Shown in pieces: positions 14,689 to 64,000 of a stretch of 64,000 nucleotides of DNA; positions within the stretch are counted from its first letter, which is position 1; each line of letters opens with the position of its first letter. The notes under the pieces are model-generated. The model saw only the letters and a list, made by a program, of their open reading frames with translations, made no database searches and was not told where the DNA came from. The stretch is from sequence record MF158044; one strand, 5' to 3'. The translations under genes were made by a program, and so were the position numbers. The DNA comes from Shigella phage Sf18.

Positions 14689-14767
14689 AAATAGTTTGAC
14701 AGGGGCTGAAAAGCCCCTTAGAATACGAACCACTAAGTAATTTTAAACAACAAAGAGAGATATTGAA

Positions 14768-19064: not shown

Positions 19065-19257
19065 TTTCTGCACTAAGTGTTCTGTTGAGATGTTTGGAAA
19101 AGACACAGGGGACTTAAAAGGCCTCTTTACAAAAGCAGAGTTTGAAGCTGGTTCAGCAATGCCAGTAATCTGTGAAGGTTGTGGTGCTTTATGGGTAGAC
19201 CATGAAGGTAACCGAGTTAAACCATCTGAAGATAACGAACGTTGGGAGCATTACTAA
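19057..19257 (+). CDS. small Cys-rich (zinc-ribbon-like) protein
   Basis: 66 aa; CxxC ... CxxC spacing. Confidence 0.35.
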   Translation: MADFCTKCSVEMFGKDTGDLKGLFTKAEFEAGSAMPVICEGCGALWVDHEGNRVKPSEDNERWEHY

Positions 19258-19258
19258 T

Positions 19259-20053
19259 ATGGGTATCGTAAAAATTATTAAAGGTGATATCTTTAAAGAC
19301 TTTGATGGTAAGAAATTTGATATCATTGGTCACGGTTGTAACTGCATGAACTTGATGGGTGCAGGTATTGCAGCAACAATTGCTAAACGCTACCCAAAAG
19401 CTTATGAAACTGACGCTGAAGTTTATGCTACAGTAGGTGGTGAAAATCATAACCCTAAGCATCTAATGCTTGGTAACATCTCTGTAGCACGTTTTAAGCA
19501 GGGTCGAATTGCTAACCTTTACACTCAGGTTATCACTGGCAAAGATGCACGATACAACGCCTTAGAAGCAGCTTTACAGCGTCTTAACAACTACTGTAAA
19601 GTTAATCAACTTAAGAAAGTTGGGCTTCCGATGATTGGTGCAGGGATTGGTGGTCTTGATAGCATGGCTGTACTGTCCATTATCAACCAGACTATGAAGG
19701 ATGTTGACGTTTATATGTATGTCTATGAAGATAAGATGTACAGTCAGTTGACTAGTCCTGTTACTGGTTGGGAGAACTTCAGTGAGCCTCAATACTTTGA
19801 TGGTGTTGCTGTGGTAGGCAAGGATAAAGTTACCCTCAAGGTGAAGCGTAATGGCAAGGTACACACCAGTTACCCTCCGGTTGAGAAGTACAATCGAAGT
19901 AACGCTCAAGTTACCCACCCGTTACAAGGTCACCACCACAGAGCGGTAACGTTTAGCGATGATGCAAGTGTATATATCAATGCGACTACAGAAGAGTTTG
20001 CAGAAGATTATATCACACATGAAAACGTAAACTATGTTGAAGCACGTAACTAA
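19259..20053 (+). CDS. macro-domain (ADP-ribose binding/processing) protein with C-terminal extension
   Basis: ATG at 19259; motifs KGDIF, DIIGHGCNCMNLMGAGIAATI, GLPMIGAGIGG align to the macro-domain core. Confidence 0.65.
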   Translation: MGIVKIIKGDIFKDFDGKKFDIIGHGCNCMNLMGAGIAATIAKRYPKAYETDAEVYATVGGENHNPKHLMLGNISVARFKQGRIANLYTQVITGKDARYNALEAALQRLNNYCKVNQLKKVGLPMIGAGIGGLDSMAVLSIINQTMKDVDVYMYVYEDKMYSQLTSPVTGWENFSEPQYFDGVAVVGKDKVTLKVKRNGKVHTSYPPVEKYNRSNAQVTHPLQGHHHRAVTFSDDASVYINATTEEFAEDYITHENVNYVEARN

Positions 20054-20107
20054 TAAGTTACCCAGATAAACATAGACAAGCCCTCCAAAGTTTGAGTTTA
20101 AAATCTC

Positions 20108-20310
20108 AGGTAAGGGGGGCTTTTTCATTTTAAATTTGTGCAGGTATAGTTGCATAGAACTCTGGACAGATTTCTTTAGCTGAACTCCAAAGGGAAAATT
20201 CATTTCAAATTTGTGCAGGTTTAGACTCCAAAGGGATTTTTCATTTTCAATCTGTGCAGATGCAGTTGGACTCCAAAGGGAAAATTCATTTTCAGTTTGT
20301 GCAGGTAGGT
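20108..20310 (+). repeat. four tandem ~40-50-bp direct repeats ending in TTGTGCAGG
   Basis: Units at ~20108, 20186, 20224, 20268 share CTCCAAAGGGAAAATTCATTTT-A--TTGTGCAGG; C-rich tract follows at 20323-20352. Confidence 0.6.
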
Positions 20311-20479
20311 AGCTGTAGGAAACCAGCCCCACCACCCCCTCTTACTCCCCTTCCTCCCAAAAGTCAAGAGAAAAATTTGTAGAGAACTCAAAAATAATTC
20401 TTGACTAGATTCCTGTTTTAGTGTATCCGCATACGTGCGTTCTATTCACGAAGCATCGAAAATATTTTTAAAAATTTTG

Positions 20480-20508
20480 TTGACTTCATAAATCCAGTCT
20501 TATAGTAT
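20480..20508 (+). promoter_or_regulatory. sigma70-like promoter at start of small-gene island
   Basis: TTGACT-N17-TAGTAT. Confidence 0.55.
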
Positions 20509-20557
20509 TTGCATCAACGGGAAACATCCCAACAATCCTAAACTGGAGAATCTAAAA

Positions 20558-20764
20558 ATGTTATATCAACGTGAGTTAATGATTGTTGACAACAACAAAA
20601 CAAATAAACGTCGTTTCTATATGCTAATTTGTGATGTTTGGCAACGTATCTCAGAAAAGGATTTTGATGAATATGTTGATACGTCAATCAGGTCTGATTG
20701 TTATTTGACAACTCACACAAGGCATTACACAAGGCATACAGCCATTTATTACTATAACGTTTAA
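20558..20764 (+). CDS. hypothetical small protein (cassette gene)
   Basis: ATG preceded by conserved CCTAAACTGGAGA leader and TTGACT-N17-TAGTAT promoter. Confidence 0.5.
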   Translation: MLYQRELMIVDNNKTNKRRFYMLICDVWQRISEKDFDEYVDTSIRSDCYLTTHTRHYTRHTAIYYYNV

Positions 20765-20775
20765 AAGGCTTGACA

Positions 20776-20934
20776 ATGGTTAAAGAAAACGATGTAATAC
20801 AATACAAAGATTTAGACGGATACCCAAAAATTGGTAAAGTCTTCTATCTCTATAAGTCTGCTATGGGTAATGATTGTATAGCCCTTACAAATGGCGACAA
20901 AATAACCATGAAAGATTTTATAAAAATTAATTAA
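20776..20934 (+). CDS. hypothetical small protein (52 aa)
   Basis: ORF below ORF-track cutoff, weak RBS, fills gap between cassette genes. Confidence 0.3.
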   Translation: MVKENDVIQYKDLDGYPKIGKVFYLYKSAMGNDCIALTNGDKITMKDFIKIN

Positions 20935-20943
20935 ATAAAGTGC

Positions 20944-20972
20944 TTTACATGGGGTTTAAAAGCTAGTATCTT
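20944..20972 (+). promoter_or_regulatory. type-A cassette promoter with embedded dyad
   Basis: TTTACA-N17-TATCTT; GGGGTTT...AAGCCCC inverted repeat spans spacer and -10. Confidence 0.5.
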
Positions 20973-21023
20973 AAGCCCCCAGATAAAGAGCTTTACCAAC
21001 AATCCTAAACTGGAGAATCTAAA

Positions 21024-21404
21024 ATGAAATATCGTGCGCCTAAATTTATCAACAAAGAAAACTTTCGTAGTATCTTAGAGGAAACTATGAAAGAAAACTT
21101 CAAAGGAAAAATAATTGTTGTTCACGCTTACAATTTTAAGTATGATGTTAATGGTAACCGTATTAACCACTACAAAGCTACTATGCTTGACGGTACATTA
21201 TCCGGTGAAAAAGCTATCATAAATGCTATTGCAGGACGTGGTAAAACTGTGATACGCTGTGAAAAAAGACGCTATCAAGGCGGTAAATATGGGTATGAAG
21301 ATGCAATGTACCATCTTGATAAAATGGGGTATGATGTAGAGAAAGCTGGAGTATCTCAAACTATTGGTAGTGACGGCTACGTTACAGTTTTCAAAATTAA
21401 CTAA
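21024..21404 (+). CDS. hypothetical small protein (cassette gene)
   Basis: Preceded by type-A cassette (promoter with dyad) and CCTAAACTGGAGAATCTAAA-ATG leader. Confidence 0.55.
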   Translation: MKYRAPKFINKENFRSILEETMKENFKGKIIVVHAYNFKYDVNGNRINHYKATMLDGTLSGEKAIINAIAGRGKTVIRCEKRRYQGGKYGYEDAMYHLDKMGYDVEKAGVSQTIGSDGYVTVFKIN

Positions 21405-21413
21405 ATAAAGTCC

Positions 21414-21442
21414 TTTACATGGGGTTTATAGTTAGATAAGAT
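21414..21442 (+). promoter_or_regulatory. type-A cassette promoter with embedded dyad
   Basis: TTTACA-N17-TAAGAT; same cassette recurs before genes at 21845, 22442, 23449, 24263, 25506, 25789. Confidence 0.5.
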
Positions 21443-21495
21443 AAGCCCCAGATAAAGAGCTTTACCAAACAATAACCTAAACTGGAGTATCAAAA

Positions 21496-21753
21496 ATGGC
21501 TACTATCAAAAACATCATTGTATCTGCAAAATCTCGTGATGACGCTCGCGCAACTGCTAAAAAACTAAATGGTAAAGTGGTTGACAACGGAAAAGAATCT
21601 GCTGTAAGATGGGGCGTAAAATGTGATAAGGAAATTACTTTAAAACGTAGTTCCTATGACCTTTTCAAAGGTGTAAAAGCAATCGGTAGAACTAACGTCT
21701 ACACGAAGAAAGGTTATAAAATGCACTTATCATTAACTGACAATTTAATCTGA
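21496..21753 (+). CDS. hypothetical small protein (cassette gene)
   Basis: Type-A cassette upstream. Confidence 0.55.
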   Translation: MATIKNIIVSAKSRDDARATAKKLNGKVVDNGKESAVRWGVKCDKEITLKRSSYDLFKGVKAIGRTNVYTKKGYKMHLSLTDNLI

Positions 21754-21844
21754 TAAAGTGCTTTACATGGGGTTTATAGTTAGATAATATAAGCCCCAGA
21801 TAAAGAGCTTTACTAACCAATAGTCCTAAACTGGAGAATCTAAA

Positions 21845-22357
21845 ATGAATTTTGTTGAAGCTACCTTTGAAGTCCAAAAAGAAAAATTCACTATCATCTA
21901 TGAAGCTGTTAATATTTGTGAAGCATCCCATTGTGTGGAGAATTGGAAGTTTACCGATGAGCACAAAGGCGGGGTTACAATCAAACTTAAAAATCCAGAG
22001 CGTAACGGGTACAAATATGCAATTCCACAGCATTACAGCCTTTCACAATTGATGAGTGATTATGCTAAACAAGGCCGCGAAAATCCATCTATAGAGGCTT
22101 ACAAGAGCTTACAAGATGAATTACAAAGAGATTTAGAGGCTAACAGCTACGTGCTATTTGCAAAGGTAGAAGATAAAGAAGGTAATACAGTATTAAATAG
22201 CTTTTCTCTTGCTTATGGCTTCGATTGGTGCTATCTTGACGGGGAAGATTTAGATTCACGATTAGAAGAGGAAGTGTCGAACTCCGATGGAGAATCTGAA
22301 GTAATGGAACGTTTAGAAGCCTTGAAAGATTCTGTTATGAATATCTTTAATATCTAA
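21845..22357 (+). CDS. hypothetical acidic protein (cassette gene)
   Basis: Type-A cassette upstream; acidic C-terminal half. Confidence 0.55.
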   Translation: MNFVEATFEVQKEKFTIIYEAVNICEASHCVENWKFTDEHKGGVTIKLKNPERNGYKYAIPQHYSLSQLMSDYAKQGRENPSIEAYKSLQDELQRDLEANSYVLFAKVEDKEGNTVLNSFSLAYGFDWCYLDGEDLDSRLEEEVSNSDGESEVMERLEALKDSVMNIFNI

Positions 22358-22441
22358 AAGTGCTTTACATGGGGTTATCAAGTTGATAAGATAGCCCCAG
22401 ATAAAGAGCTTTACAAACAATCCTAAACTGGAGAATCTAAA

Positions 22442-22738
22442 ATGTTTATTGCCGCAAACGTTAGAACTAAATTAAGCCAGCTATTAAGTAATATCCAATT
22501 CATTGAATCTATGCGCCGTACATCTGAAGCCGTAGAGTGGTATCATGGAAAGATTAACAAAAAGGAAGTAATAATTTGTGTATGGAACTTTTGTAAAGAA
22601 TACAAAAAACCATTGCTTCAGGTTGATATCTATGATAACACTAATAAGTCATCGATTAAGACCACTAGAGATATGGTTGATTCATATGAAATTAGTCACA
22701 CTGGTAAACTATTCCACAAAGGTAAAAACAAATGTTAA
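22442..22738 (+). CDS. hypothetical small protein (cassette gene)
   Basis: Type-A cassette upstream. Confidence 0.55.
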   Translation: MFIAANVRTKLSQLLSNIQFIESMRRTSEAVEWYHGKINKKEVIICVWNFCKEYKKPLLQVDIYDNTNKSSIKTTRDMVDSYEISHTGKLFHKGKNKC

Positions 22739-23079
22739 TCACATACGTTGCAATTTTTATCTCTATTGTGGCGCTCTATAAAGCCTTACAAGCGCACAGT
22801 ATAGCTAATAAGGCACTTACAAGGGATTTAAAAATAAACCTTGTACGGGGCTTTCTAGAGCGTTTAAGCTTAGAACAATTGAAACGCTTAGAGATGAGCT
22901 TTCGATTCAAAGCAGAAACATACCGGATTGATAACATCCTAGACGGGGATTTTAAATTAATCAGTGATTATGACATACTTCTTGAGTCAATTCAAGATAT
23001 AAACCTGAAAGATTATTATATCGTGATAGCGCAAGAAATTAATAAAAAAGAGCTTGCAATGCAGAATCAAAACAAGTAA
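22732..23079 (+). CDS. hypothetical membrane protein
   Basis: N-terminal TM helix; 3' end (LAMQNQNK-stop) plus downstream promoter duplicated at 26434-26480. Confidence 0.45.
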   Translation: MLITYVAIFISIVALYKALQAHSIANKALTRDLKINLVRGFLERLSLEQLKRLEMSFRFKAETYRIDNILDGDFKLISDYDILLESIQDINLKDYYIVIAQEINKKELAMQNQNK

Positions 23080-23113
23080 AGTATTCATCAACGGTACTAA
23101 TGACGGTCGAACT

Positions 23114-23359
23114 TTGAACGTAACTTTAAAACACTATATAGACGGTGTATTAAACTTTGAAGAGTTAAGAGCAGAACAGCACCTATTAGATTGGCAAGTA
23201 GCAGGTTTACAAAAAACCGCCACAGGATATGGAAAGAAAATTCCTACATCTTGGAAAGTTCGATACCTTGGAAAGTTACGCAGAATTTATCAAGATGTTT
23301 ACAGTAATAGCGGCGTAAGTTACATTATTGTTAGTGGTAAAAAATTGTATTTAGTCTAA
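23114..23359 (+). CDS. hypothetical protein, possible TTG-initiated or decaying gene
   Basis: Long ORF downstream of TTGCAA-N17-TAAAGT promoter has no in-frame ATG; TTG at 23114 tentative. Confidence 0.25.
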   Translation: MNVTLKHYIDGVLNFEELRAEQHLLDWQVAGLQKTATGYGKKIPTSWKVRYLGKLRRIYQDVYSNSGVSYIIVSGKKLYLV

Positions 23360-23448
23360 TAAATTGCTTTACATGGGGTTATCAAGTTGCTAAGATAGCC
23401 CCAGATAAAGAGATTTATCTAAAACTAACCTAAACTGGAGACTAGAAA

Positions 23449-23856
23449 ATGACTAATGTTAATCACAAAGAAGTTGCAATTTTGAAAGCACGTTTGACCA
23501 TTAACCGCATCAACATTGTAACATCAGCAGCACCAGACGAAACACTACATAATATCATCGGTAAAATTCAGGGCGCAGTAGTAGACACAAAACAGCTTAA
23601 AGAATCCTTGCAAGATGTAGCAGCAGGAGCTATAATTGACGGTGCTCAATATGAGATGAAGGAAATGCTGTCAAAGTCAAAAGTAATGAATAAAGAACTT
23701 GACTTGAAAATGTTTAGATTTGCTGTTAAAGTGTGGCTATGTGTTGATTTTGATGCAAACTTTGCAATTGCTGATTTCTTTGCAACATGGTTACAGCGTA
23801 ACTTACCGGTTGAAGTTTTCCGTGAAATCTGCGATGCAATTTATTCAGAAATTTGA
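23449..23856 (+). CDS. hypothetical protein (cassette gene)
   Basis: Type-A-like cassette upstream. Confidence 0.5.
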   Translation: MTNVNHKEVAILKARLTINRINIVTSAAPDETLHNIIGKIQGAVVDTKQLKESLQDVAAGAIIDGAQYEMKEMLSKSKVMNKELDLKMFRFAVKVWLCVDFDANFAIADFFATWLQRNLPVEVFREICDAIYSEI

Positions 23857-23885
23857 TTGACACTGCAAAAGCATAGTAGTAAAGT
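23857..23885 (+). promoter_or_regulatory. type-C cassette promoter
   Basis: TTGACA-N17-TAAAGT followed by conserved leader. Confidence 0.5.
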
Positions 23886-23928
23886 ACTCATCAGACAACG
23901 AAACAACCCTAAACTGGAGATTCAAAAG

Positions 23929-24177
23929 ATGAAAACAAAAACACAACTCAAAAGTATGATGAAAAATGGTTTTCTCGATGATGTATACAAAGAATGTAGA
24001 CGGTATGGGGAAATAAAAAGTAATTTCGATTTTGAGTACACGTATACAGTGAATTTCAAAACTAACGAACGAAAAACAGACCTTGTAACTGAGATTCAAA
24101 TAGAATACAAAGATTTATTATGGACTTTTGAACTTGTAAAAGGTTTATGCACATCGGCAGGTTATAAAAACATCTAA
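23929..24177 (+). CDS. hypothetical small protein (cassette gene)
   Basis: ATG after CCCTAAACTGGAGA leader; ORF-track TTG start 23857 is the -35 element. Confidence 0.5.
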   Translation: MKTKTQLKSMMKNGFLDDVYKECRRYGEIKSNFDFEYTYTVNFKTNERKTDLVTEIQIEYKDLLWTFELVKGLCTSAGYKNI

Positions 24178-24262
24178 AAGTGCTTTACATGGGGTTTATA
24201 GTTAGATAAGATAAGCCCCAGATAAAGAGCTTTACCAACAATCCTAAACTGGAGAATCTAAA

Positions 24263-24820
24263 ATGAAATGCTTTCATGGTACTACACAAGAAAACTTTGT
24301 AAACCTTATCAATGGCGGTGATAAACCATCAGGAGCTTGGAATTGCTCTGATATGGATGGATGTTTTTACGTCTACCCTGTTAACAAGTTCTATGATGTA
24401 GAGAATCTGGATGACGAACAAATCACAGATGAAGGTATTAGAAACGCGCTTGATAGCGCAAGCATTACAGCAGCCTATCAAATGAAGTCACAAAAGCTTG
24501 TTATCTTGGAACTGGATATTCCAGAAGATGATTTACAAGATGACTGGAGCTGTGAGAACATGAGCGACGTAGCAAGCTTTACAGAATATTTCGATAAAGA
24601 ATGGATTAAAAAGGTTTACACAACTGAATTTAATGCTATGTATGCGCCTTTCTTTGTCCCTAACCTAAACAATAGAAATTTAGGATATGTACCAGACGAA
24701 CTACGCAACATTGCAGAAATAGTCCAACGTAGTGATGGGATGAGCAATGTATATTGTGATATCTTTGACACCATGCAATGCAACGTAACAGAAACGGTTA
24801 TAAACGACTTAACAGCATAA
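24263..24820 (+). CDS. hypothetical acidic protein (cassette gene)
   Basis: Type-A cassette upstream; strongly acidic. Confidence 0.55.
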   Translation: MKCFHGTTQENFVNLINGGDKPSGAWNCSDMDGCFYVYPVNKFYDVENLDDEQITDEGIRNALDSASITAAYQMKSQKLVILELDIPEDDLQDDWSCENMSDVASFTEYFDKEWIKKVYTTEFNAMYAPFFVPNLNNRNLGYVPDELRNIAEIVQRSDGMSNVYCDIFDTMQCNVTETVINDLTA

Positions 24821-24883
24821 ACCATAGAATCACACCAGTTCACTAGAAAAGCCCCGCACAGGGGCTTACAAGAGGCTTAAAAC

Positions 24884-25114
24884 ATGCTTACTACAATCTA
24901 TCTTATTCTATCTATCTGCAATGGTTCACAGTGTGACTTTAAAGGTTTAGAAGAGTTTACAGGTAGCGAAAATAATGCTATTGTTGCCTGTCAGATAGCA
25001 AGGCAAGACTACCCAACATCGGATGATATCCAATGTTACTATAAGTCAGAAGATGATGAAGGTATTTACTTTGATAGTGTGAATGGTGAATATGAGATTC
25101 TTATAGAAAAGTAG
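24884..25114 (+). CDS. hypothetical small protein, possible signal peptide
   Basis: AAGAGG RBS; hydrophobic N-terminus LILSICNG; perfect hairpin upstream. Confidence 0.45.
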   Translation: MLTTIYLILSICNGSQCDFKGLEEFTGSENNAIVACQIARQDYPTSDDIQCYYKSEDDEGIYFDSVNGEYEILIEK

Positions 25115-25143
25115 TTGACACTGAAAACGCAAGAAAGTAAAGT
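25115..25143 (+). promoter_or_regulatory. type-C cassette promoter
   Basis: TTGACA-N17-TAAAGT then GGGAAACATCCC dyad and CCTAAACTGGAGA leader. Confidence 0.5.
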
Positions 25144-25192
25144 ATTCATCAACGGGAAACATCCCAACAATCCTAAACTGGAGATTCAAAAA

Positions 25193-25414
25193 ATGTTGCA
25201 AGTTCTTAACGTAAAAACCATTGATTTTAAATTCTCAAATGTTCGTCGTACCTATTTACAGCCGTTTAGTAAACCTGTTAGGATTCCCAACGATGACGCT
25301 AAAAAGTTGATTGATGAAATTCTAGCTAATGGCGGTTATCTGGCTAGTCATAAGCAGTATAATGATGAGGATGGAAGCCTGATAAATGAGTTTACATATT
25401 ATTACTACAAATAA
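25193..25414 (+). CDS. hypothetical small protein (cassette gene)
   Basis: ATG after conserved leader; ORF-track TTG start 25115 is the -35 element. Confidence 0.5.
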   Translation: MLQVLNVKTIDFKFSNVRRTYLQPFSKPVRIPNDDAKKLIDEILANGGYLASHKQYNDEDGSLINEFTYYYYK

Positions 25415-25505
25415 CTAATAAAGTGCTTTACATGGGGTTTATAGTTAGCTAAGATAAGCCCCAGATAAAGAGCTTTACCAACAATCCTAAACTGGAGAAT
25501 CTAGA

Positions 25506-25703
25506 ATGTTATCACTGATGCAAAAACTTTCTACCTTGTGGTGTTTAAAAGGTGTAGAGTGTAACCTTAACATGGAAGGTTCAAAGATAGACCTAAAAAT
25601 AGTATACAATGGAGAAATACTATTCTCACAGAATAGCAGTCATCCACACTTCAAAGATAATGCAATTATGGCCGTGAATAATCTGATGGATAGAATTTAT
25701 TAA
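25506..25703 (+). CDS. hypothetical small protein (cassette gene)
   Basis: Type-A cassette upstream. Confidence 0.5.
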   Translation: MLSLMQKLSTLWCLKGVECNLNMEGSKIDLKIVYNGEILFSQNSSHPHFKDNAIMAVNNLMDRIY

Positions 25704-25788
25704 AGTGCTTTACATGGGGTTTAAAAGCTAGTATCTTAAGCCCCAGAGAAAGAGCTTTACCAACAATCCTAAACTGGAGAATCTGAAA

Positions 25789-26130
25789 ATGGCCTATGTA
25801 ACAATTATCACCGATAAAGAAAATTCGTCATGGTCTACCCAAGTTAACGACAAAATGAAACCTATGCAGTGTCTCAAGTACTTTGAGCAATGGAACAGGG
25901 GAGAAGATGTAAGCCCCTTTCAAGTGATGCAGATTGTACATGTTGACAATGAAGGGAATAAAACTACCCTTAACACTGAATACTATGCTACACGTTTCGA
26001 AACTCGCAAATCAGCTATGCAGGAGTTAAGAGAAAAGGGATATAGTCACATTGCCGCGCTCATTTGGTCTGATTTGCTTAAAAAACAGTCATTAACCTAT
26101 GTTAAGCCAGAAAAAATCTTTATAAGCTAA
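25789..26130 (+). CDS. hypothetical protein (cassette gene)
   Basis: Type-A cassette upstream. Confidence 0.55.
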   Translation: MAYVTIITDKENSSWSTQVNDKMKPMQCLKYFEQWNRGEDVSPFQVMQIVHVDNEGNKTTLNTEYYATRFETRKSAMQELREKGYSHIAALIWSDLLKKQSLTYVKPEKIFIS

Positions 26131-26327
26131 TCAACAACTTATAAAAAATCTTTTGAAAAACTATTGACAATGCCCCTTGACAAGTGTAACTTTGTTCGAG
26201 GGGGTTTATCTAAAAGGGGTTAACTTAATAGATTCTTTATAGATAAGCGTAAAAAGTACTTGCAAAGGTCTAATCATATCTATATAGTATCTTCAAAAGG
26301 CAACTTCCTAAACTGGAGAATCACTAA

Positions 26328-26468
26328 ATGTTAGATATCATTAAAAACCCTATCCTTTGCGGTATGATTGTTTCTGTTGTGTTGCCATTAGCAATGCTCA
26401 TCATTGGTGAAATCTCAGATAAACTTTTTGATAAAAAACTACTTGCAATGCAGAATCAAAACAAGTAA
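26328..26468 (+). CDS. hypothetical membrane mini-protein (46 aa)
   Basis: ATG after CCTAAACTGGAGA leader; TM helix; C-terminus identical to that of 22732-23079. Confidence 0.35.
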   Translation: MLDIIKNPILCGMIVSVVLPLAMLIIGEISDKLFDKKLLAMQNQNK

Positions 26469-26532
26469 AGTATTCATCAACGGGGAGGGAGACCTCCCCA
26501 CTAAACAAAATTCCTAAACTGGAGAATCTAGA

Positions 26533-27060
26533 ATGAATAAGTTTAATGCTGTTAATGCAATCCGTAGCCGTGAAGTGATGAGCAAGCCTTGTAAAGATAC
26601 TTGGGAATTTACCTTAAAGAGCAAAGTTTTTGCAGTTATCACAAAAGGGGAAGATAAGCAGTTTTATGTACACCGACCAAATGTAAAAGCGGTAACAGCC
26701 AACAACTTTATGGGGGCTATTTCTCTTATTCTGAATGATTATATGGCTATAGTCGCAGAAATTCACGAAATGGCTATTAAGGCAACTAAAAACGAGTTAA
26801 ACCGCTTTAAAATGGCTTATGAGCGCTCTATTAAGTCCCATAATCTTTTTATTGCAATCCACTATACAGGCATGTATGCTATGGGAACGGGTAACCAACA
26901 ATACCCACTCTATGAAGTGGAAAACATCTTTACAAGTGACTACCCAACAACTAATTTTAAAATTACGTTAGGGGAAGCATTAAATAGGGGAATTAGGCTT
27001 TACGAACAATCTTTAAAAAACTTAGAAAATTCCCTTGACGAAATCATCACAAATCTATAA
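26533..27060 (+). CDS. hypothetical protein (cassette gene)
   Basis: Type-B cassette (GGGGAGGGA-gac-CTCCCC dyad plus leader) upstream. Confidence 0.55.
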   Translation: MNKFNAVNAIRSREVMSKPCKDTWEFTLKSKVFAVITKGEDKQFYVHRPNVKAVTANNFMGAISLILNDYMAIVAEIHEMAIKATKNELNRFKMAYERSIKSHNLFIAIHYTGMYAMGTGNQQYPLYEVENIFTSDYPTTNFKITLGEALNRGIRLYEQSLKNLENSLDEIITNL

Positions 27061-27120
27061 AGTACTTATCAACGGGGAGGGAATGACCTTCCCCAACAAT
27101 CCTAAACTGGAGACTAGAAA

Positions 27121-27384
27121 ATGAATAATCAAGAAATCACTATCCTGTTACAAATCGGTACTGACAAAGAAGATATCCAACTTTGCAAACGTATTGAAAG
27201 TGATTGGTTCAACGGTGAAATCATCGCAGAATCTTATGAAGTAGTCGGATTCATGAATGGTGAAATTGTAAGCCATTTCGGTTTAACTAAATCTGAAGCC
27301 GTTGCAAAGTATGACGTTTTATCTTGTGAGATTCTTACAAAATACAATGAAAAAAGACTTGCAACTTATGCAGCAATGAATTAA
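27121..27384 (+). CDS. hypothetical small protein (cassette gene)
   Basis: Type-B cassette upstream. Confidence 0.5.
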   Translation: MNNQEITILLQIGTDKEDIQLCKRIESDWFNGEIIAESYEVVGFMNGEIVSHFGLTKSEAVAKYDVLSCEILTKYNEKRLATYAAMN

Positions 27385-27449
27385 TATTACTTTCAACGGG
27401 GAGGGAGACTTCCCCACTAACCTAAATTCCTAAACTGGAGAATCTGAAA

Positions 27450-27701
27450 ATGGCTACTATCCACGCAACTGTTAACAATTTTGGCTTCCATGTATTAGAT
27501 GTTAAATTTGATATGGTTGGAACTGGCGATGTTTTTGGCATGGTTGATATGTGTCTAAAAGCAACTATTCAGGACTACAATCAATCTGAGTGGTTCTGGA
27601 AAGAAGTAAAACAAGAAGTCTTAAAGGATGGCAAATCCTCTTACTATTGGGGTGATTCTCTTATCACGCTTTACTATGAAGTTGACGGCTTCAATAACTA
27701 A
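27450..27701 (+). CDS. hypothetical small protein (cassette gene)
   Basis: Type-B cassette upstream; followed by terminator. Confidence 0.5.
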   Translation: MATIHATVNNFGFHVLDVKFDMVGTGDVFGMVDMCLKATIQDYNQSEWFWKEVKQEVLKDGKSSYYWGDSLITLYYEVDGFNN

Positions 27702-27743
27702 CAAGTCGCCGCAACGGGGCAAATAGCCCCAGACACCTTTACA

Positions 27744-27767
27744 GCCCCTTAGATGGGGCTTTTTTAC
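27744..27767 (+). terminator. rho-independent terminator ending plus-strand small-gene island
   Basis: AGCCCC-ttagat-GGGGCT then TTTTTT. Confidence 0.6.
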
Positions 27768-27769
27768 GT

Positions 27770-29300
27770 CTTCCTAGAATCTTACCATTGATTCGATAGA
27801 ATCTATCCCATACATTTAGAATAATAACTCTATAGCTTACTCTATATCCTCTTATCAAATCAACTTAAATATAAGCCCATAACCCGAAAGGGAAGGGCAA
27901 TCCCTAAAACGCTCTATAACGCTCTATACGGGCTTATCATCTCATCTTAAGCAATCATATTAACCTGCTCTTAAAAGCCCTTTATAGAGCTTTCTAGAGC
28001 CTTAAAAGAATCTTATAAGGGTATAAGCTTTATTATCTCGTTAGTATCTTGTGAATGGTTAAACAGGGGCTTGATAATAGCTTTAAAGTATGTTATGGAG
28101 TCTTCAAAGTAACGTAAAAGAACCTTAAAAGTAACGTAAAAGTTAGCCCCCTTTACATTCTCTTAACAAAATCTTAACAAATGCTACATAGTTATGCTTG
28201 TTAGCCCCTTGTTAAATCCTTGTTAGAGGTATGTTAAGAGCTTGTTAGCCTCTTTGAAGTCCCTGTATAAGCCCCTAGAAAGCCCTATAAAGAGCTATAC
28301 AGGTAGTTGGGGTGTAGTTACTAGGGAGAACCTTAGAAGAGGCTATATAGAGCTATACAGAGCTTTTAAGAGGGCTTTATAGAGAATCACTAAGAAGGGA
28401 AGGGAACTATAGACCAAGAGATAGTGACCATGTTAATAGCTTGTTAAAAAGGTTTAGAACTTGTTAGCACCTTGTTAATTATCTTAACAAAATAACTCTT
28501 AAGATTTAACTATTTAGCAACTTATAAGCAACTTGTTAGACCCTTGTTAGTAGTGTTACAGACTGGTTAAGCTCTTGTTAGTTCTGTTAAGAGGCTGTTA
28601 AGAACTTTGAAGAGATGTTAAGAGCTTGAGAGAGTTGTTAAGAGATTGTTAATGATATTTTAAGATTTTGCAAAGGGGATGTTACAGGGCTGTTTAGGGC
28701 TACCAAGCAGATATACACCCTAAGTAGATATTTTTCAGATTCTCCAAAGACCCTAAAAAGTAACCTACCTAGTCTATTTTATAAAAATTTTATAATTCTG
28801 AATAACTATCTATACACTATCTTATATAAAACAGGAATTAACAGGCTTATAAGATACCTTGTTAGTACCGTGTTAGACCTTGTAGGATAAGCCTAAGAGG
28901 TTGATTCTTAAGAACAACCGAATCAACTAGAAGGGAATACCTGTTTAGTGTTATATAACAGTCTATATAGAGGCTTAGTAATACCTAGTGATTCTGCTAT
29001 ATAGGGTACTATCGTTTACCTAGAGATTAAGATGGCTATAGGGGCTTCTAAGGGGCTAGGAAGAGGTTAGGAAGGTGATTGTATAGGGTTGATTAATGGT
29101 AGGCTTAGAAGGCTTTATAGAGGGCTATATAGAGAGCACTATTTAGGGACTAAGAGGTTATATAGATACTATATAATACTATATAGAGATGATGCTTAGA
29201 GAGGGTGTTTAGAAGGGTATAGATATTTTATCACATATCATGGTGACCCAAGATGAACGGAGTGAATCCCAAATTTTATAAAAATTATAAATTTCGTAAA
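27770..29300. repeat. ORF-free region dense in short direct repeats (TGTTA(A/G) and TATA-N-AGAG families)
   Basis: No ORF of 60 aa or more on either strand; over 20 TGTTA(A/G) copies, many ~11 bp apart (28197-28248, 28563-28654); bounded by terminators. Confidence 0.7.
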
Positions 29301-29308
29301 TTTTACTC

Positions 29309-29333
29309 AATAAAAAGCCCCAATTAAGGGGCT
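29309..29333 (-). terminator. rho-independent terminator ending minus-strand operon
   Basis: On minus strand AGCCCC-ttaatt-GGGGCT then TTTTTATT. Confidence 0.55.
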
Positions 29334-29341
29334 GTATAGTT

Positions 29342-30013
29342 TTACATCACTTCACTAAGCATAGTTTGCAATGAAGTTTTAGAAGTCTGGAAGAAGTGTG
29401 TGAACCCATTATGACGTTCTCTTACCTGAATCATTATCTGGTCACCCTTAATCGGGTGTGAACTAATATGGTATTCATTCATGTTCAGTACAACACCCAA
29501 ACCATCTATAATGTGTCTGAGTATGTCATATTCAACAAATTCTTCTTTACCTGTGACCTTGATACAAACACCCTTGTTAGTTCTTTTAGGGTTTATATCT
29601 TCCATAACCAGCATTTGTTGTCCACCAAGAGAAATCATAGAGAACTCTTTACGGTTCTGCTGCTTAACATACATCTCGAGTTTCTTCAAAGTATCTTCAT
29701 AGAACGGGTAAGACTTCTTGACAAAGATACCTTCAAGTGGCTCTTTACCTGTTAGATTTCTACGATAATTCATCCGATGAATAAGACGATACAGGTCACT
29801 TTTCTCATCTTTGGTAAAGTGTCTGTCTACATCTTTAACACTAAATGTGATATAATTACTCTCAAGTTCAAACTTTTTCATCTCTATCAAATCCTTAAAG
29901 CATTTCTTAGTAATCGCTTCCCATTCTTCGGAGTTCTTTCTCTTCCTCTTCAGATGGGGAACCATATCTGCTAAGTTCTTCCAACTCTTCTTCAGTAGGT
30001 GTCCCATAATCAC
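29342..30013 (-). CDS. hypothetical protein
   Basis: 223 aa ORF, last gene of minus-strand operon; terminator downstream. Confidence 0.5.
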   Translation of the reverse strand: MIMGHLLKKSWKNLADMVPHLKRKRKNSEEWEAITKKCFKDLIEMKKFELESNYITFSVKDVDRHFTKDEKSDLYRLIHRMNYRRNLTGKEPLEGIFVKKSYPFYEDTLKKLEMYVKQQNRKEFSMISLGGQQMLVMEDINPKRTNKGVCIKVTGKEEFVEYDILRHIIDGLGVVLNMNEYHISSHPIKGDQIMIQVRERHNGFTHFFQTSKTSLQTMLSEVM

Positions 30014-35545: not shown

Positions 35546-36426
35546 CCTCCTACTGCGTTAATAACCACCTTGGCAGATTGGGATGTGATTGAGCCACCTA
35601 CACCAGTTACAACACAAGAGTAAGTACCTTCATCATCAGCTTTAGAAGTCGGTGTCTTTTCATATGTTGCAGATGTTGCTGAAGGGATATCTACATCATC
35701 TTTCTTCCACTGATAACCAGTTGCACCAGTGGCTACGATGCTAAGGGTGAGTGTATCTCCCTCTGTAATCTCTTGGTTAGTAGGTTGCTGTGTAATCACA
35801 GGCAGTGCATTCACAGTTACTGTGGCAGCGTTGGAATTAACACTTGAGCCACCTTCACCAGAAACTACACAGGTGTATGCGCCAGCATCAGTAGGGACTA
35901 CGCCATTCTTAGTATATGTTGCAGAGGTTGCTCCAGAGATGTTTGATGCACCTTTCTTCCACTGATAACCAGTTGCACCAGTAGCAACAACTGAAAGTGT
36001 AAGTGTTCCACCCTCGTTAACAGTTTGGTCAGTTGGCTGCTGTGTAATAACTGGAGGTGTGATTGCATCCTTCAACTTTGCATTAAGCATGGAGAAAGGT
36101 TTAACCCTTGCCAACCATTCACAATAAACTGTGTCAACATCCTTCCCATTGATGATTGCATACTGCAAGTCCATGAAGAAGTCAGCAGTCCTCATCTGAG
36201 CACCAACTGAATATAAAAGTTCTTCACTAAATGGAACTGTGTAGTCTGGTGTGTAATTGAAGTCAGTAACTTCTGGAATATCAGACTCAGGCCACGGTGA
36301 GCTATATGTCAGAGGCAGAACGGCCTCTTGATACTTTCTGAAGTCGTATCTTTTGCCAGCTTTAACATTCGCTACAAAGTCTTTAACGAACTCTTTAAAA
36401 TCTGGATATGTCTTTGCTTTAATCAT
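35542..36426 (-). CDS. protein with N-terminal domain paralogous to next gene plus two tandem Ig-like domains
   Basis: Two ~85-aa repeats (PVITQQPT...GATGYQWKK...TVN) typical of Ig-like beta-sandwich repeats. Confidence 0.5.
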   Translation of the reverse strand: MIKAKTYPDFKEFVKDFVANVKAGKRYDFRKYQEAVLPLTYSSPWPESDIPEVTDFNYTPDYTVPFSEELLYSVGAQMRTADFFMDLQYAIINGKDVDTVYCEWLARVKPFSMLNAKLKDAITPPVITQQPTDQTVNEGGTLTLSVVATGATGYQWKKGASNISGATSATYTKNGVVPTDAGAYTCVVSGEGGSSVNSNAATVTVNALPVITQQPTNQEITEGDTLTLSIVATGATGYQWKKDDVDIPSATSATYEKTPTSKADDEGTYSCVVTGVGGSITSQSAKVVINAVGG

Positions 36427-62115: not shown

Positions 62116-64000
62116 TGGCTGGATTAACAACTACAGGTTTACAAACAAAAAGATATCAAGAAATCTTGGATGATGTTAAAGCAAGTCTGTATAGAGATAT
62201 CTCACCAAACCTTGATGTTTCTGAAGATAGCGAACTTGGGTTATTCTTAGCTTCTGTTTGCCGAGGTCTTGCAGACGTTCATGAAATCTTGTCAGAAATC
62301 TATGATGGTGGTACTATTGACAAAGCTGAAGGATTCAGTTTAGATGATGTAACAGCTTTGAATGCTGTATACAGATATGTGGCACAGGCTACAAGAGGTC
62401 AAGCTGAGTTCACTGGTAATTCTGGTGCTTCTGTACCAGCCACTACAAGATTAAGAAGCACAGCAGGTAACATCTTTTACCCTGTGTCAACTTTCACACT
62501 GACTCCATCTTACTGTGTAGAGGCAAACTTAGAAGTTAACTCTTTACGAACAGATGCAAACTATGTTATTATCATTGACAACATTGAGTATTCATATCAG
62601 CCGACTAGTTCTGATACCATTACAACATTGCTACAGAAACTTGCAGATGCTATTAATGGTGGTATTATTGCAAAGGCTGAAGTTACTAATGATGGTTCAG
62701 TTCTGAGAATCTATAAAGACACTGGAGATATCATTGCCAGAACTAACCCTATGGTTGTTACTGCAACGACATTCTTAACATTTACAAAGATTACTTCAAT
62801 CAGTGACGTTGTAGCAGATGAAACTGGAGCTATCCAGACTCTTGCAGGAACCTTGATTGAGATTGAAACAACTGTAGATGGTCTCGATAGTGTTTTCAAC
62901 AGATATGACTTGACAACAGGTCGTGATGAGGAAACTGACACAGAACTGAGACAACGTTACTTAGAATCTCTGGCTGTTACTGGTGTAGGTACTCTAGATG
63001 CTATTGTAGCTGCTGTCAAGAGAGTTCAAGGACCATTACAACATTGCTACAGAAACTTGCAGATGCTATTAATGGTGGTATTATTGCAAAGGCTGAAGTT
63101 ACTAATGATGGTTCAGTTCTGAGAATCTATAAAGACACTGGAGATATCATTGCCAGAACTAACCCTATGGTTGTTACTGCAACGACATTCTTAACATTTA
63201 CAAAGATTACTTCAATCAGTGACGTTGTAGCAGATGAAACTGGAGCTATCCAGACTCTTGCAGGAACCTTGATTGAGATTGAAACAACTGTAGATGGTCT
63301 CGATAGTGTTTTCAACAGATATGACTTGACAACAGGTCGTGATGAGGAAACTGACACAGAACTGAGACAACGTTACTTAGAATCTCTGGCTGTTACTGGT
63401 GTAGGTACTCTAGATGCTATTGTAGCTGCTGTCAAGAGAGTTCAAGGTGTGTCTGATGCTTCTGGTGTAGAAAATGATACTGAGACAACAAACTCTGATG
63501 GTCTTCCTCCGAAGTCTTTTAAGATTGTTGTAGTTGGTGGTCAGAATGATAATATTGCACAGGCAATCTGGGACACGAAACCTGCTGGTATTCGCCCATA
63601 TGGTTCAATCTTTGGGACTGCATATGACTTAGGTTCTCTCCCTCACGACGTTTACTTTAGTAGACCAATGCCTAAATACGTTTTTGTCAAGGTTACTTAC
63701 TCTCTTTACGATGAAGAAACTCTTAACATCCCTGAGCAGGATATTCATGACAGAATTGTTCAAGGTATTAATGCCTACGGTAGAACTTTGAAAGTTGGTA
63801 ACGATGTAATCCCTAACAGAATCTATGGACATATCTATGATGTGATTCAAGGTATCGAGATTAATGAGATTAAGGTTGCACTTTCAAATAACCAAGCAAT
63901 TCCACCTGCTGAGGGGCAGTACACAACCTCAAGAATCACTATTGATGGTGACCAGTACACTGTTTGGGAAAGCTCACAGTATACAATTACCAAGGAGTAA
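62115..64000 (+). pseudogene. baseplate J-like protein gene interrupted by a 416-bp tandem duplication
   Basis: N-terminal frame stops at 63122 after junction; original frame resumes and runs to TAA at 63998-64000; deleting one copy restores ~489-aa ORF. Confidence 0.6.
62616..63447 (+). repeat. perfect tandem direct duplication, 2 x 416 bp
   Basis: 62616-63031 identical by eye to 63032-63447; identical translations in ORF track on both strands. Confidence 0.85.

Follow-up and report, generated by a model that had tools for sequence, protein, structure and literature searches.

Promoter-early stem-loops (PeSLs) have been described in the T4-type phages RB49/phi1, T4/PST and KVP40/nt-1 (Arbiol et al. 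2010, PMC2839356; Comeau et al. 2014, PMC4122927), and their promoter and terminator/attenuator activity was measured for RB49/phi1 only (PMC2839356). In Felix O1, 57-bp and 39-bp 'direct repeats' were listed without interpretation (PMC3185647). The window analysed here, a DNA stretch of 64,000 nucleotides, is of this Felix O1-like lineage (Ounavirinae), close to Shigella phage Sf13, and it carries a ~7-kb block of 19 small ORFs (46–185 aa; 20558..27701, + strand), most of them preceded by a repeated cassette; both the count of 19 genes and the cassette sequences given in a first-pass annotation were correct. We found the 57-bp Felix O1 repeat to be the core of our type A cassette and the 39-bp repeat to be the promoter of types B and C, and the GenBank record of wV8 annotates the same elements as DR_1 to DR_9; promoter, hairpin and shuffling roles were not proposed in either case. 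We consider it likely that the cassettes are the Ounavirinae counterpart of the T4-type PeSL, serving early expression, insulation of neighbouring genes and recombination, and the block is best read, with the same degree of confidence, as a hyperplastic early-gene region whose genes are self-contained expression modules. The cassettes are thus real yet largely expected, since T4-like phages are known to have a shuffling device of this kind; the shuffling role, the published PeSL precedent and the longer type A hairpin are what is added to the first-pass annotation.

The hairpin at the upstream border corresponds to Felix O1 terminator t13 (PMC3185647), and the terminator at the downstream border is the sole canonical one on the + strand 3' of the island's first gene; no canonical terminator was found inside the island, only at its two borders (20080-20125 and 27743-27766). 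Sixteen cassettes of ~90 nt, all in one orientation, are restricted to 20480-27449, and a repeat search recovered them as families D1-D6, D13 and D14. Type A has eight copies (starting near 20936, 21406, 21754, 22356, 23360, 24176, 25419 and 25701), with the layout TAAAGTGCTTTACA-N17-TAAGAT (or TATCTT, TAATAT), a dyad GGGGTTTAT...ATAAGCCCC, and then AGATAAAGAGCTTTACC and the leader. Type B has three copies (26444, 27035, 27363) and a truncated one at 23053-23094; type C has two (20480, 25115) and a further copy at 23857 that has promoter and leader without a hairpin; and a plain promoter with leader, without a dyad, lies at 26260. The features are as follows:

20080..20125, + strand: upstream border, terminator-like hairpin GCCCTCC...GGGGGGC then TTTTT, after a macro-domain gene (sequence reading)
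20480..20557, + strand: type C cassette, TTGACT-N17-TAGTAT, CATCAAC, hairpin GGGAAACATCCC, leader CCTAAACTGGAG; genes 20558-20764 and 20776-20934
20936..21023, + strand: type A cassette, -10 TATCTT, dyad GGGGTTTAA/TTAAGCCCC; gene 21024-21404
21406..21495, + strand: type A cassette; gene 21496-21753
21754..21844, + strand: type A cassette; gene 21845-22357
22356..22441, + strand: type A cassette, dyad GGGGTTATC/GATAGCCCC; gene 22442-22738 and overlapping gene 22732-23079
23053..23094, + strand: truncated type B cassette (family D13), promoter TTGCAA-N17-TAAAGT inside the end of gene 22732-23079
23360..23448, + strand: type A cassette, AAAT...ATTT outer-helix variant; gene 23449-23856
23857..23928, + strand: type C-like cassette, TTGACA-N17-TAAAGT and leader, without hairpin; gene 23929-24177
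24176..24262, + strand: type A cassette, reference copy; genes 24263-24820 and 24884-25114
25115..25192, + strand: type C cassette; gene 25193-25414
25419..25505, + strand: type A cassette; gene 25506-25703
25701..25788, + strand: type A cassette; gene 25789-26130
26260..26327, + strand: promoter TTGCAA-N17-TATAGT and leader, without dyad; gene 26328-26468
26444..26532, + strand: type B cassette, hairpin GGGGAGGGAGACCTCCCC, promoter within the end of gene 26328-26468; gene 26533-27060
27035..27120, + strand: type B cassette; gene 27121-27384
27363..27449, + strand: type B cassette; gene 27450-27701
27743..27766, + strand: downstream border, canonical intrinsic terminator AGCCCCTTAGATGGGGCT then TTTTTT

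A search for the leader CCTAAACTGGAG with at most one mismatch identified 15 copies in the 64-kb window, where shuffled sequence gives a mean of 0.31 and a maximum of 2; every one is on the + strand and falls within 20537-27440. Every copy lies 8–10 nt 5' of an ATG that opens an ORF, GGAG standing 8–10 nt before the ATG in 15/15; the leader is near-identical across copies and its GGAG pairs with an upstream CCU. The first-pass statement that nearly every gene stands behind a cassette holds for 15 of the 19 genes, which have the leader, and not for the other four. Genes 20776, 22732 and 24884 have no cassette of their own and follow the upstream gene, while ahead of ORF 23095-23359 a deletion of ~55 nt took the 3' half of the cassette (hairpin and leader) together with the ATG and two codons, so that this ORF has no start of its own. 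The stop codon of gene 26328-26468 is the TAA of the -10 of the cassette at 26444..26532.

The first-pass reading of the repeats as composite promoter, dyad and ribosome-binding-site cassettes was borne out. A sigma-70 scan picked up every cassette, the predicted promoters of all types reading, at the level of sequence, TTTACA or TTGACA or TTGCAA, N17-18 and TAnnnT, with an AT-rich stretch 5' of the promoter that reads AATAAAG or TTTTTAAAAA. When 87 distinct type A copies, taken from 18 genomes, were compared, the -35 TTTACA was unchanged except for one base, and in the -10 (TAnnnT) the key positions are held (T1 in 86/87, A2 and T6 each in 87/87) as the middle three bases vary freely; the spacer is 17 nt in 81 copies and 18 nt in six. 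This is the sigma-70 pattern of conservation, from which we would expect host RNA polymerase to start at every cassette soon after infection. Each module would then be headed by a ~90-nt cassette comprising a host sigma-70 promoter, a G+C-rich stem-loop and a standard leader with a GGAG ribosome-binding site. T4 middle promoters carry a MotA box, (a/t)(a/t)(a/t)TGCTT(t/c)A, centred at -30 and 11–13 bp upstream of the -10. We rejected a MotA-dependent middle promoter here: GTGCTTTA is present, yet 19 bp separate its end from the -10, and it overlaps an ordinary -35 spaced at 17 bp. The timing of transcription in Felix O1 would count against the PeSL-like account, as RT-PCR detected ORFs 16, 20, 21 and 22 at 5 min and ORFs 17, 19 and 23 at 25 min (PMC3185647), though this table discriminates poorly because head genes were likewise detected at 5 min (PMC3185647) and these ORFs are split between the two times.

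In type A, the GGGG...CCCC dyad makes up the inner half of a longer hairpin, in which the -35 region is paired with the transcript's first bases. The whole consists of an outer helix of 12 bp, a 2x2 internal loop, an inner helix of 10 bp and a loop of 10–11 nt (~22 bp in all), with the -35 and -10 hexamers both inside it. Pairing was seen in 90.1% of 1892 cells, against 35–57% with the partners slid, and the covariation score of 0.104 (at most 0.036 when slid) was reached in 0/500 shuffles; the copies are related via descent and gene conversion, and these covariation counts are not independent events. The compensated pairs are 20-46 (GC 83, UA 4), 22-43 (UG 56, CG 29, UA 1), 26-39 (UA 26, AU 17, UG 15, GC 2, CG 1) and 7-59 (GC 65, UA 14, AU 1, GU 2). 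In four window copies the minimum-energy fold is exactly the two-helix hairpin (-19 to -25 kcal/mol, z -3 to -6.2), and the antisense strand is 4–7 kcal/mol weaker in 3/4 type A copies. The outer helix is supported mostly by one covarying pair, and its two arms, which are copies of one near-palindrome, could be conserved as protein sites instead. No T-run follows any cassette hairpin; due to this classical intrinsic termination is not predicted, and we rejected the cassette hairpins as intrinsic (Rho-independent) terminators, T-runs being found only at 20080-20125 and 27743-27766. The two-part hairpin would form only in RNA reading through from the upstream gene, where it most likely insulates adjoining modules, either by attenuating read-through or as a processing and 3'-protection site.

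A refinement of the PeSL-like account, not exclusive of it, would make the type A hairpin an RNase III-type processing signal such as lies between T7 early genes: cleavage of read-through RNA at or close to the internal loop would give monocistronic mRNAs, each with a protective 3' hairpin and a 5' end near that of the primary transcript. We regard this as a tentative possibility. The 12-bp lower stem, 2x2 loop and 10-bp upper stem (~22 bp, -19 to -25 kcal/mol), the position between consecutive early-type cistrons, the missing U-tract and the preference for the sense strand all argue for it, and the hairpin presumably resembles T7 signals of the R1.1 type. However, the requirement for about two turns of double-stranded RNA with an internal loop, placed between cistrons, agrees with type A only, as the hairpins of types B and C (4–8 bp) are too short for RNase III and yet occupy the same position; in addition, an Rfam search returned no matching family, and the PeSL work ascribed the effect on lacZ to termination (PMC2839356).

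The hairpins of types B and C, which are short, single helices of 4–8 bp, begin exactly after CAAC and ~10 nt past the -10, the offset being fixed (93/113 collected sites, from a search that also caught some type A copies) and the sequences many and different. The hairpins of type C are weak (-7.9 kcal/mol, z about -1 to -1.5), and none is present in two of the cassettes (23857, 26260). The first-pass annotation had offered the dyads as either operators or 5' stabilising hairpins, and the second option, that the hairpins are solely 5'-terminal stem-loops stabilising their own mRNA, is doubtful for the cassettes as a whole, though plausible for types B and C. E. coli mRNAs are known to be protected by 5' stem-loops, and with a start at the purine 7–8 nt downstream of the -10 the B/C hairpin would follow ~3 nt after it, at a position that is held as the hairpin sequence varies. 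In the eight type A cassettes, however, the dyad's 3' arm runs to 7 nt past the -10 and no farther than the expected start, so that a transcript from the cassette's own promoter would hold only one arm of each helix and the dyad is no 5' hairpin of that transcript. Under the PeSL-like account the B/C hairpin, which closely follows the predicted start, would in addition cap that cassette's mRNA at its 5' end.

We judge the first of those options improbable, namely that a regulator from phage or host binds the dyads and the repeated ATAAAGnGCTTTA palindromes as double-stranded DNA operators and so turns all early promoters off, or co-activates them, together. Early shut-off regulators are common in virulent phages, and each type A cassette has two copies of ATAAAG(T/A)GCTTTAC, one on either side of the promoter core (at about -45 to -31 and about +3 to +17), both among the stretches most conserved across genera; for these outer ATAAAGnGCTTTA repeats, which are conserved in sequence, protein binding could still apply. 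The inner dyad, however, changes sequence and keeps complementarity (GGGG/CCCC to GGTG/CACC, TTTAT/ATAAG to TTATC/GATAG), G.U pairs make the DNA halves non-symmetric (56/87 at pair 22-43, 78/87 at pair 8-58), and a G7-to-T change in the upstream palindrome is matched by C59-to-A in the other palindrome and not within the same one; we identified no candidate regulator. The conservation of complementarity over sequence, the G.U pairs possible in the sense strand only and the longer hairpin are evidence against a protein operator in type A and for RNA pairing in read-through transcripts.

Evidence for the shuffling role comes from comparison of genomes. The cassette is present in ~290 relatives (287 phage records by BLAST), and the matches listed are all to Ounavirinae of 83–90 kb, save one Staphylococcus-labelled record of 147 kb that we take to be a mislabel or chimera; that record aside, no similarity to the cassette outside Ounavirinae was found among the matches listed. 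When the island was compared with 17 relatives, 104/149 homology ends fell in cassettes, which make up 18.4% of it, although intergenic breakpoints are expected under any mechanism because selection removes broken genes. Island gene number ranges from 9 (Felix O1) to 20 (Michonne) across relatives; one slot holds any of three alternative genes or none, depending on the relative, gene 23929-24177 replaces a different gene at the same slot in Sf13, and three gene families change slot from phage to phage. Genes that lack a cassette always move together with the upstream gene, and the same gene can have different cassette types in different phages. At the junction of a tandem duplication in Michonne, the end of one cassette is fused to the start of the next. 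Cassettes in front of different genes in one genome are 85.2% identical and those at orthologous positions in different genera 82.4%; as judged from these identities, the copies evolve in concert. With 16 copies of these ~90 nt running in one direction, the cassettes would also act as homology linkers, recombination between them deleting, duplicating, swapping or relocating modules with expression intact. This recombination role is shown, at the level of genome comparison, by the comparative evidence, and the transcriptional and RNA roles we infer. That the cassettes are instead selfish repeats, miniature mobile elements spreading without a role in expression, would agree with their many copies and concerted evolution but is highly improbable, as they have a single orientation, each fits exactly into the interval from a stop codon to the following ATG, with a correctly spaced ribosome site, none was found within genes or in the rest of the 64 kb, their conservation is that of a promoter, and they have neither terminal inverted repeats nor target duplications.

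The proteins encoded by the modules were described in the first-pass annotation as unrecognisable, and our searches agree: no Pfam match was found for the 19 island proteins, each of which has a full-length match to a PHROG of unknown function. Its description of them as often acidic or membrane-anchored was overstated; 5/19 have a pI below 5 and two or three have a hydrophobic N-terminus (the 46-aa product of gene 26328-26468 has a membrane segment), but 5/19 have a pI above 9. The early host-takeover or anti-defence role that the same annotation suggested for them stays putative. The product of gene 24263-24820 is the sole one of the 19 to give matches to the ADP-ribosyltransferase fold, and these are weak (AF2 model, mean pLDDT 67). 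Taking as the mark of such an enzyme an ART fold with an H-Y-E type triad, we found H5-G-T and Y36 kept in at least 90% of 48 distant homologues and E83 invariant only among 15 close homologues, and a profile search against PDB sequences gave only a weak match to Tpt1 (E = 0.41).

The closest likeness is to the PeSLs, which are also repeated intergenic cassettes clustered in a hyperplastic region of small genes of unknown function, with the same order of upstream stop codon, AT-rich stretch, sigma-70 promoter, GGGG...CCCC stem-loop, Shine-Dalgarno sequence and ATG. In both, the stem-loop has G-T pairs and lies over or beside the -10, it occurs at several positions relative to the promoter, and insertions, deletions and replacements between relatives are bounded by cassettes. 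The lineages are unrelated, the cassettes being those of Ounavirinae, so that this is a likeness of kind and not of descent. Unlike in PeSLs, a second helix, pairing the -35 region with the transcript start, surrounds the stem-loop of type A, and the leader is near-identical in all copies, with its GGAG paired to an upstream CCU; measured promoter activity and termination, and mini-circles formed by recombination between adjacent cassettes, belong to the description of PeSLs, whereas the Ounavirinae cassettes are described here at the level of sequence. The RNase III processing sites of T7 resemble type A in being hairpins of two stems and an internal loop, placed between successive early cistrons that host RNA polymerase transcribes. 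In T7, however, these sites are separate from the promoters, which lie at the left end only, whereas in type A hairpin and promoter share the same DNA and cleavage is a tentative prediction. Lambdoid morons (units of promoter, gene and terminator; PMC2839356) resemble the modules in that accessory genes, inserted among others, are expressed as autonomous units, but they are single, unrelated insertions with their own signals and have no repeated linker in common through which homologous exchange is driven.

A search of the 64-kb window with the leader 12-mer CCTAAACTGGAG, allowing at most one mismatch, identified 15 copies, all on the + strand and all within 20537-27440, whereas dinucleotide shuffles held a mean of 0.31 copies and a maximum of 2. 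Each leader copy is followed 8–10 nt downstream by an ATG that opens an ORF, and 15 of the 19 small ORFs of this island have their own cassette (a ~90-nt unit of promoter, hairpin and leader). The first-pass annotation had sorted these cassettes into three classes (types A, B and C); all three were recovered, and the cassette repeat is real and far beyond what chance would produce.

Cassettes and flanking features of the island (coordinates where given, strand, description)
19202-20053: macro-domain gene, upstream flank of the island
20080-20125: terminator-like hairpin after the macro-domain gene, on the island's upstream side
Island, + strand: eight type A cassettes
Island, + strand: three complete type B cassettes and a fourth ending short at 23094
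Island, + strand: two type C cassettes and a third, without hairpin, at 23857
26260, + strand: plain promoter and leader
27743-27766, + strand: canonical terminator, the only one of the region on this strand, on the island's downstream side

Genes 20776, 22732 and 24884 lie directly behind an upstream gene and have no cassette of their own. Near ORF 23095-23359, about 55 nt that are present in phages Sf13, Moogle and Michonne are absent (23053-23130); this deletion removed the hairpin, the leader, the ATG and the first two codons of the homolog of Sf13 gp50, leaving the ORF without its own start or ribosome site, so that a pseudogene and an assembly error at the gap are both possible. The type B promoter extends into the preceding coding sequence, where TTGCAATGCAGAATCAAAACAAGTAAAGT supplies the last codons of the upstream genes; because of this the membrane proteins encoded by 22732-23079 and 26328-26468, which are otherwise unrelated, both end in LAMQNQNK. 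Each of the three complete type B cassettes has a -10 box whose TAA doubles as the stop codon of the upstream gene.

The promoter was analyzed in 96 type A copies (87 distinct) from the window and 17 relatives. Among the distinct copies the -35 TTTACA shows a single deviation, of one base in one copy, and the -10 box keeps T1 (86/87), A2 (87/87) and T6 (87/87) while its middle three bases vary freely; 81 copies have a 17-nt spacer and the other six an 18-nt one. As T1 and A2 occupy unpaired positions of the hairpin loop, their conservation is not explicable by pairing, and we read the overall pattern, on sequence grounds, as a sigma-70 signature. A published RT-PCR table for Felix O1 lists ORFs 16, 20, 21 and 22 at 5 min and ORFs 17, 19 and 23 at 25 min (PMC3185647); our search of the transcription literature on Felix O1-like phages found nothing beyond this table. 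We rejected a MotA-box reading of GTGCTTTA, which lies 19 bp from the -10 instead of 11–13 bp, with a normal -35 at that place.

The dyad described in the first-pass annotation is the inner helix (H2) of a larger type A structure. H2 has 10 bp, with pairing kept by changes on both sides, e.g., GGTG/CACC in place of GGGG/CCCC in an Erwinia phage, a wobble pair 22-43 (56 copies U.G, 29 C-G, one U-A), and a pair 26-39 that occurs as five standard pair types. It is enclosed by a 12-bp outer helix (H1), separated from it by a 2x2 internal loop, in which the arm ATAAAGTGCTTTA, containing the -35, pairs with AGATAAAGAGCTTTA directly after the predicted start site. For both helices together, 90.1% of cells pair versus 35–57% with slid partners, and the covariation score of 0.104 (at most 0.036 when slid) was reached by none of 500 shuffles; for H1 alone the values are 89.9% versus at most 52% and 0.078 versus at most 0.028, this signal coming mainly from pair 7-59 (GC 65, UA 14, AU 1, GU 2). 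In the MAFFT alignment, 22 copies of the GGGGTTATC/GATAGCCCC variant have one compensated base-pair deletion at the wrong place, and the paired fractions at pairs 24-41, 25-40 and 26-39 are too low as a result. RNAfold returned exactly H1 plus H2 for four window copies (-19 to -25 kcal/mol, z-scores -3 to -6.2), the antisense strand being 4–7 kcal/mol weaker in three of the four, and the frequent G.U pairs work only in the sense strand. An Rfam scan of 19800-29500 (E up to 1) gave only a chance miRNA match.

Since the 3' arm of H2 reaches no further than 7 nt past the -10, the full hairpin can form only in RNA reading through from upstream and not in the cassette's own transcript. A role for RNase III at this hairpin is an attractive prediction. 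The first-pass annotation had proposed that the dyads are either operators or 5' stabilising hairpins; with pairing that is maintained by changes on both sides and depends in part on sense-strand G.U pairs, we consider a DNA operator unlikely for the inner dyad; the outer repeats may have such a function.

The hairpins of types B and C vary widely in sequence and begin right after CAAC, ~10 nt past the -10 (an offset seen at 93 of 113 sites, some type A copies being among those that the search collected). No cassette hairpin has a U-tract, and for this reason we rejected the reading of these hairpins as classical terminators. In the leader, the variants CCT-TAAACT-GG and CCTT-AAACT-AGG differ by one T and one A; these two insertions occur together in 43 copies, never alone, and are both missing from 161. 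This co-occurrence, and the versions found in Erwinia phages (CCTTATAAAGG and CCTCAAAGAGG), indicate that an upstream CCU is paired with the ribosome-binding GGAG in every case.

A megablast search with the window identified Felix O1-like phages (Ounavirinae: Mooglevirus, Suspvirus and Felixounavirus), the closest being Shigella phage Sf13, which is 97–98.5% identical and, one gene apart, collinear. By itself, the type A cassette matched 1489 places in 287 phage records, Erwinia phages among them, and the type B cassette 1193 places in 245 records; among the matches listed, all were Ounavirinae of 83–90 kb except one 147-kb record labelled Staphylococcus, which we take to be a mislabel or chimera. 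When the island was compared with those of 17 relatives, 104 of 149 ends of homology lay inside cassettes (18.4% of the island's sequence), and most of the others were only a few bases from one. Gene number in the island ranges from nine (Felix O1) to 20 (Michonne). The slot between the homologs of 23449 and 24263 is either empty or occupied by one of three unrelated genes, the gene families 23929, 25506 and f44 are found in slots that differ from phage to phage, and the cassette-less genes always travel with their upstream gene. Cassette type also varies at a given gene: depending on the phage, 25193 has a type C or a type A cassette and 26533 a type B or a type A cassette. In Michonne, a tandem duplication has a junction where one cassette, ending in ...TCTAAAATG, passes directly into the following one, which starts with CTTTACA. 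Cassettes before different genes of one genome are more alike (85.2% identity) than those at the same gene across genera (82.4%), a hallmark of concerted evolution by exchange between copies; between Mooglevirus and Felixounavirus, identity is 82.2% at orthologous and 81.8% at non-orthologous positions. We also noted that the start of the type A cassette at 21404-21425 (CTAAATAAAGTCCTTTACA) is closely similar to the post-hairpin leader of Felixounavirus type B cassettes (CTAAATAAAGTCCTTAAAC; Felix O1, 5020-5045), and that the leader end ATCTAAAATG is similar to the start of some type A cassettes, ATCTAAAAGTG. Cassette parts may have derived from one another, and such similarities provide extra crossover points.

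None of the 19 island proteins had a Pfam match above threshold, and the product of 21845-22357 gave a good structural model with no recognisable fold. Each of the 19 matches one PHROG of unknown function along its whole length, and we therefore take them to be products of real, conserved phage genes; the label of host take-over or anti-defence proteins, as put forward in the first-pass annotation, is a guess. The 76-residue acidic product of 24884-25114, a gene always found with the ADP-ribosyltransferase (ART)-like gene upstream, starts MLTTIYLILSICNGSQC, resembling a signal peptide that may include a lipoprotein cysteine. Between this gene and 24263-24820 is a hairpin without a T-run, AGCCCCGCACAGGGGCT (24848-24870), and the corresponding site in phage wV8 is annotated as a Rho-independent terminator.

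Downstream of the terminator at 27743-27766, ~1.6 kb (27767-29340) contain no ORF of at least 50 aa and are followed by minus-strand genes. This stretch, the counterpart of which is gene-less in all relatives too, is full of short repeats with a period of 10–12 bp (CTTGTTAG, TATAGAGCT, TGTTAAGAG and AAAGTAACGTA). Because several GenBank records of relatives begin or end 1.4–2.3 kb from the last cassette, it may be the site of an origin or of the genome termini; the UAB_Phi87 record opens in the tRNA region and does not place the physical genome end relative to the island. On the other side, three to four tandem copies of a 41–45-nt unit, ACTCCAAAGGGAAAATTCATTTTCAATTTGTGCAGGT (20124-20306), lie between the upstream terminator-like hairpin and the first cassette and are followed by a C-rich run, CCCCACCACCCCCTCTTACTCCCCTTCCTCCC (20328-20359); relatives annotate a small minus-strand ORF in this region. 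Elsewhere in the window there are direct repeats at 62607-62906 and 63023-63322 (300 nt, 99% identity, copies 416 nt apart) and at 35655-35807 and 35907-36059 (153 nt, 75% identity, copies 252 nt apart), and repeat families D7, D8, D12 and D15-D17 form a cluster of tRNA-like T-arm repeats at 40100-45050, in keeping with the tRNA gene cluster of Felix O1-like phages.

The cassettes are best explained as the Ounavirinae counterpart of the promoter-early stem-loop (PeSL) cassettes of T4-type phages. Each would combine an early promoter, an RNA hairpin separating neighbouring modules and a standard leader, and the same repeated sequence would act as a linker for modular recombination. The comparative data support the recombination role, while promoter use and hairpin function are what we infer from sequence features. 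The notion that the cassettes are selfish repeats was considered and rejected. A more far-reaching version of the PeSL-like reading, which we offer as a speculation with the odds against it, is that type A is dual-coded. As DNA it would be a sigma-70 promoter; as RNA, only in transcripts reading through from the upstream module, the same bases would fold into the 22-bp two-part hairpin, in which the -35 hexamer pairs with what are also the first 15 nt of the transcript that the cassette itself starts, and RNase III or some other activity specific for double strands would cleave this hairpin. The monocistronic, 3'-protected mRNA of each small gene would in this way be the same regardless of the promoter used, and the invariant leader, with its GGAG paired to the upstream CCU, would be a shared handle for global translational control or shut-off of early mRNAs.

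Felix O1-like phages are used in typing and biocontrol of Salmonella, E. coli and Shigella, and the cassettes provide a map of 16 likely early promoters and module borders that can aid engineering, e.g., gene insertion or swapping at cassette borders, and the choice of small early genes for tests of host take-over or anti-defence functions. A promoter that overlaps a conserved two-part RNA hairpin is also a compact example of a sequence under double constraint.

Some of these elements have been seen before. The Felix O1 genome paper reported, without interpretation, 57-bp and 39-bp direct repeats between genes 15/16, 19/20, 18/19 and 20/21 (PMC3185647). The 57-bp repeat is the type A core and the 39-bp repeat the type B/C promoter; the same elements are annotated as DR_1 to DR_9 in the wV8 GenBank record, and the wV8 paper makes no mention of them. 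The cassettes explain the uninterpreted repeats of both genomes. PeSLs were described by Arbiol et al. from the T4-type phages RB49 and phi1 as intergenic cassettes of hyperplastic regions that run from the upstream gene's stop codon through an AT-rich stretch, a sigma-70 promoter, a GGGG...CCCC stem-loop and a Shine-Dalgarno sequence to the ATG; the stem-loop has G-T pairs, is mostly placed over the -10 or in the spacer between the two promoter hexamers, and lowered downstream lacZ as much as rrnB T1. Promoter strength was very high, and PeSLs recombined with one another, giving indels and mini-circles (PMC2839356; PMC4122927). The commonest layout of T4-type PeSLs also occurs outside the island: at 14696-14724, between ORFs of 790 and 373 aa, presumably rIIA and rIIB (of the two, relatives have a label for rIIB only), is a promoter with a hairpin wholly within its spacer, TTGACA-GGGGCTGAAAAGCCCC-T-TAGAAT, and a similar site is present in Felixounavirus AN17P8 (near 1473). 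Our literature search found no paper connecting PeSLs to Felix O1-like phages. The present analysis carries the PeSL idea beyond T4-type phages, into an unrelated phage group that is widely used, and PeSL-like cassettes in such a lineage suggest convergent evolution of one way to build a plastic accessory-gene region. Relative to the literature, what is new here is the lineage itself (Ounavirinae), the outer helix H1 that ties the -35 region to the transcript start, and the paired ribosome site in the leader.
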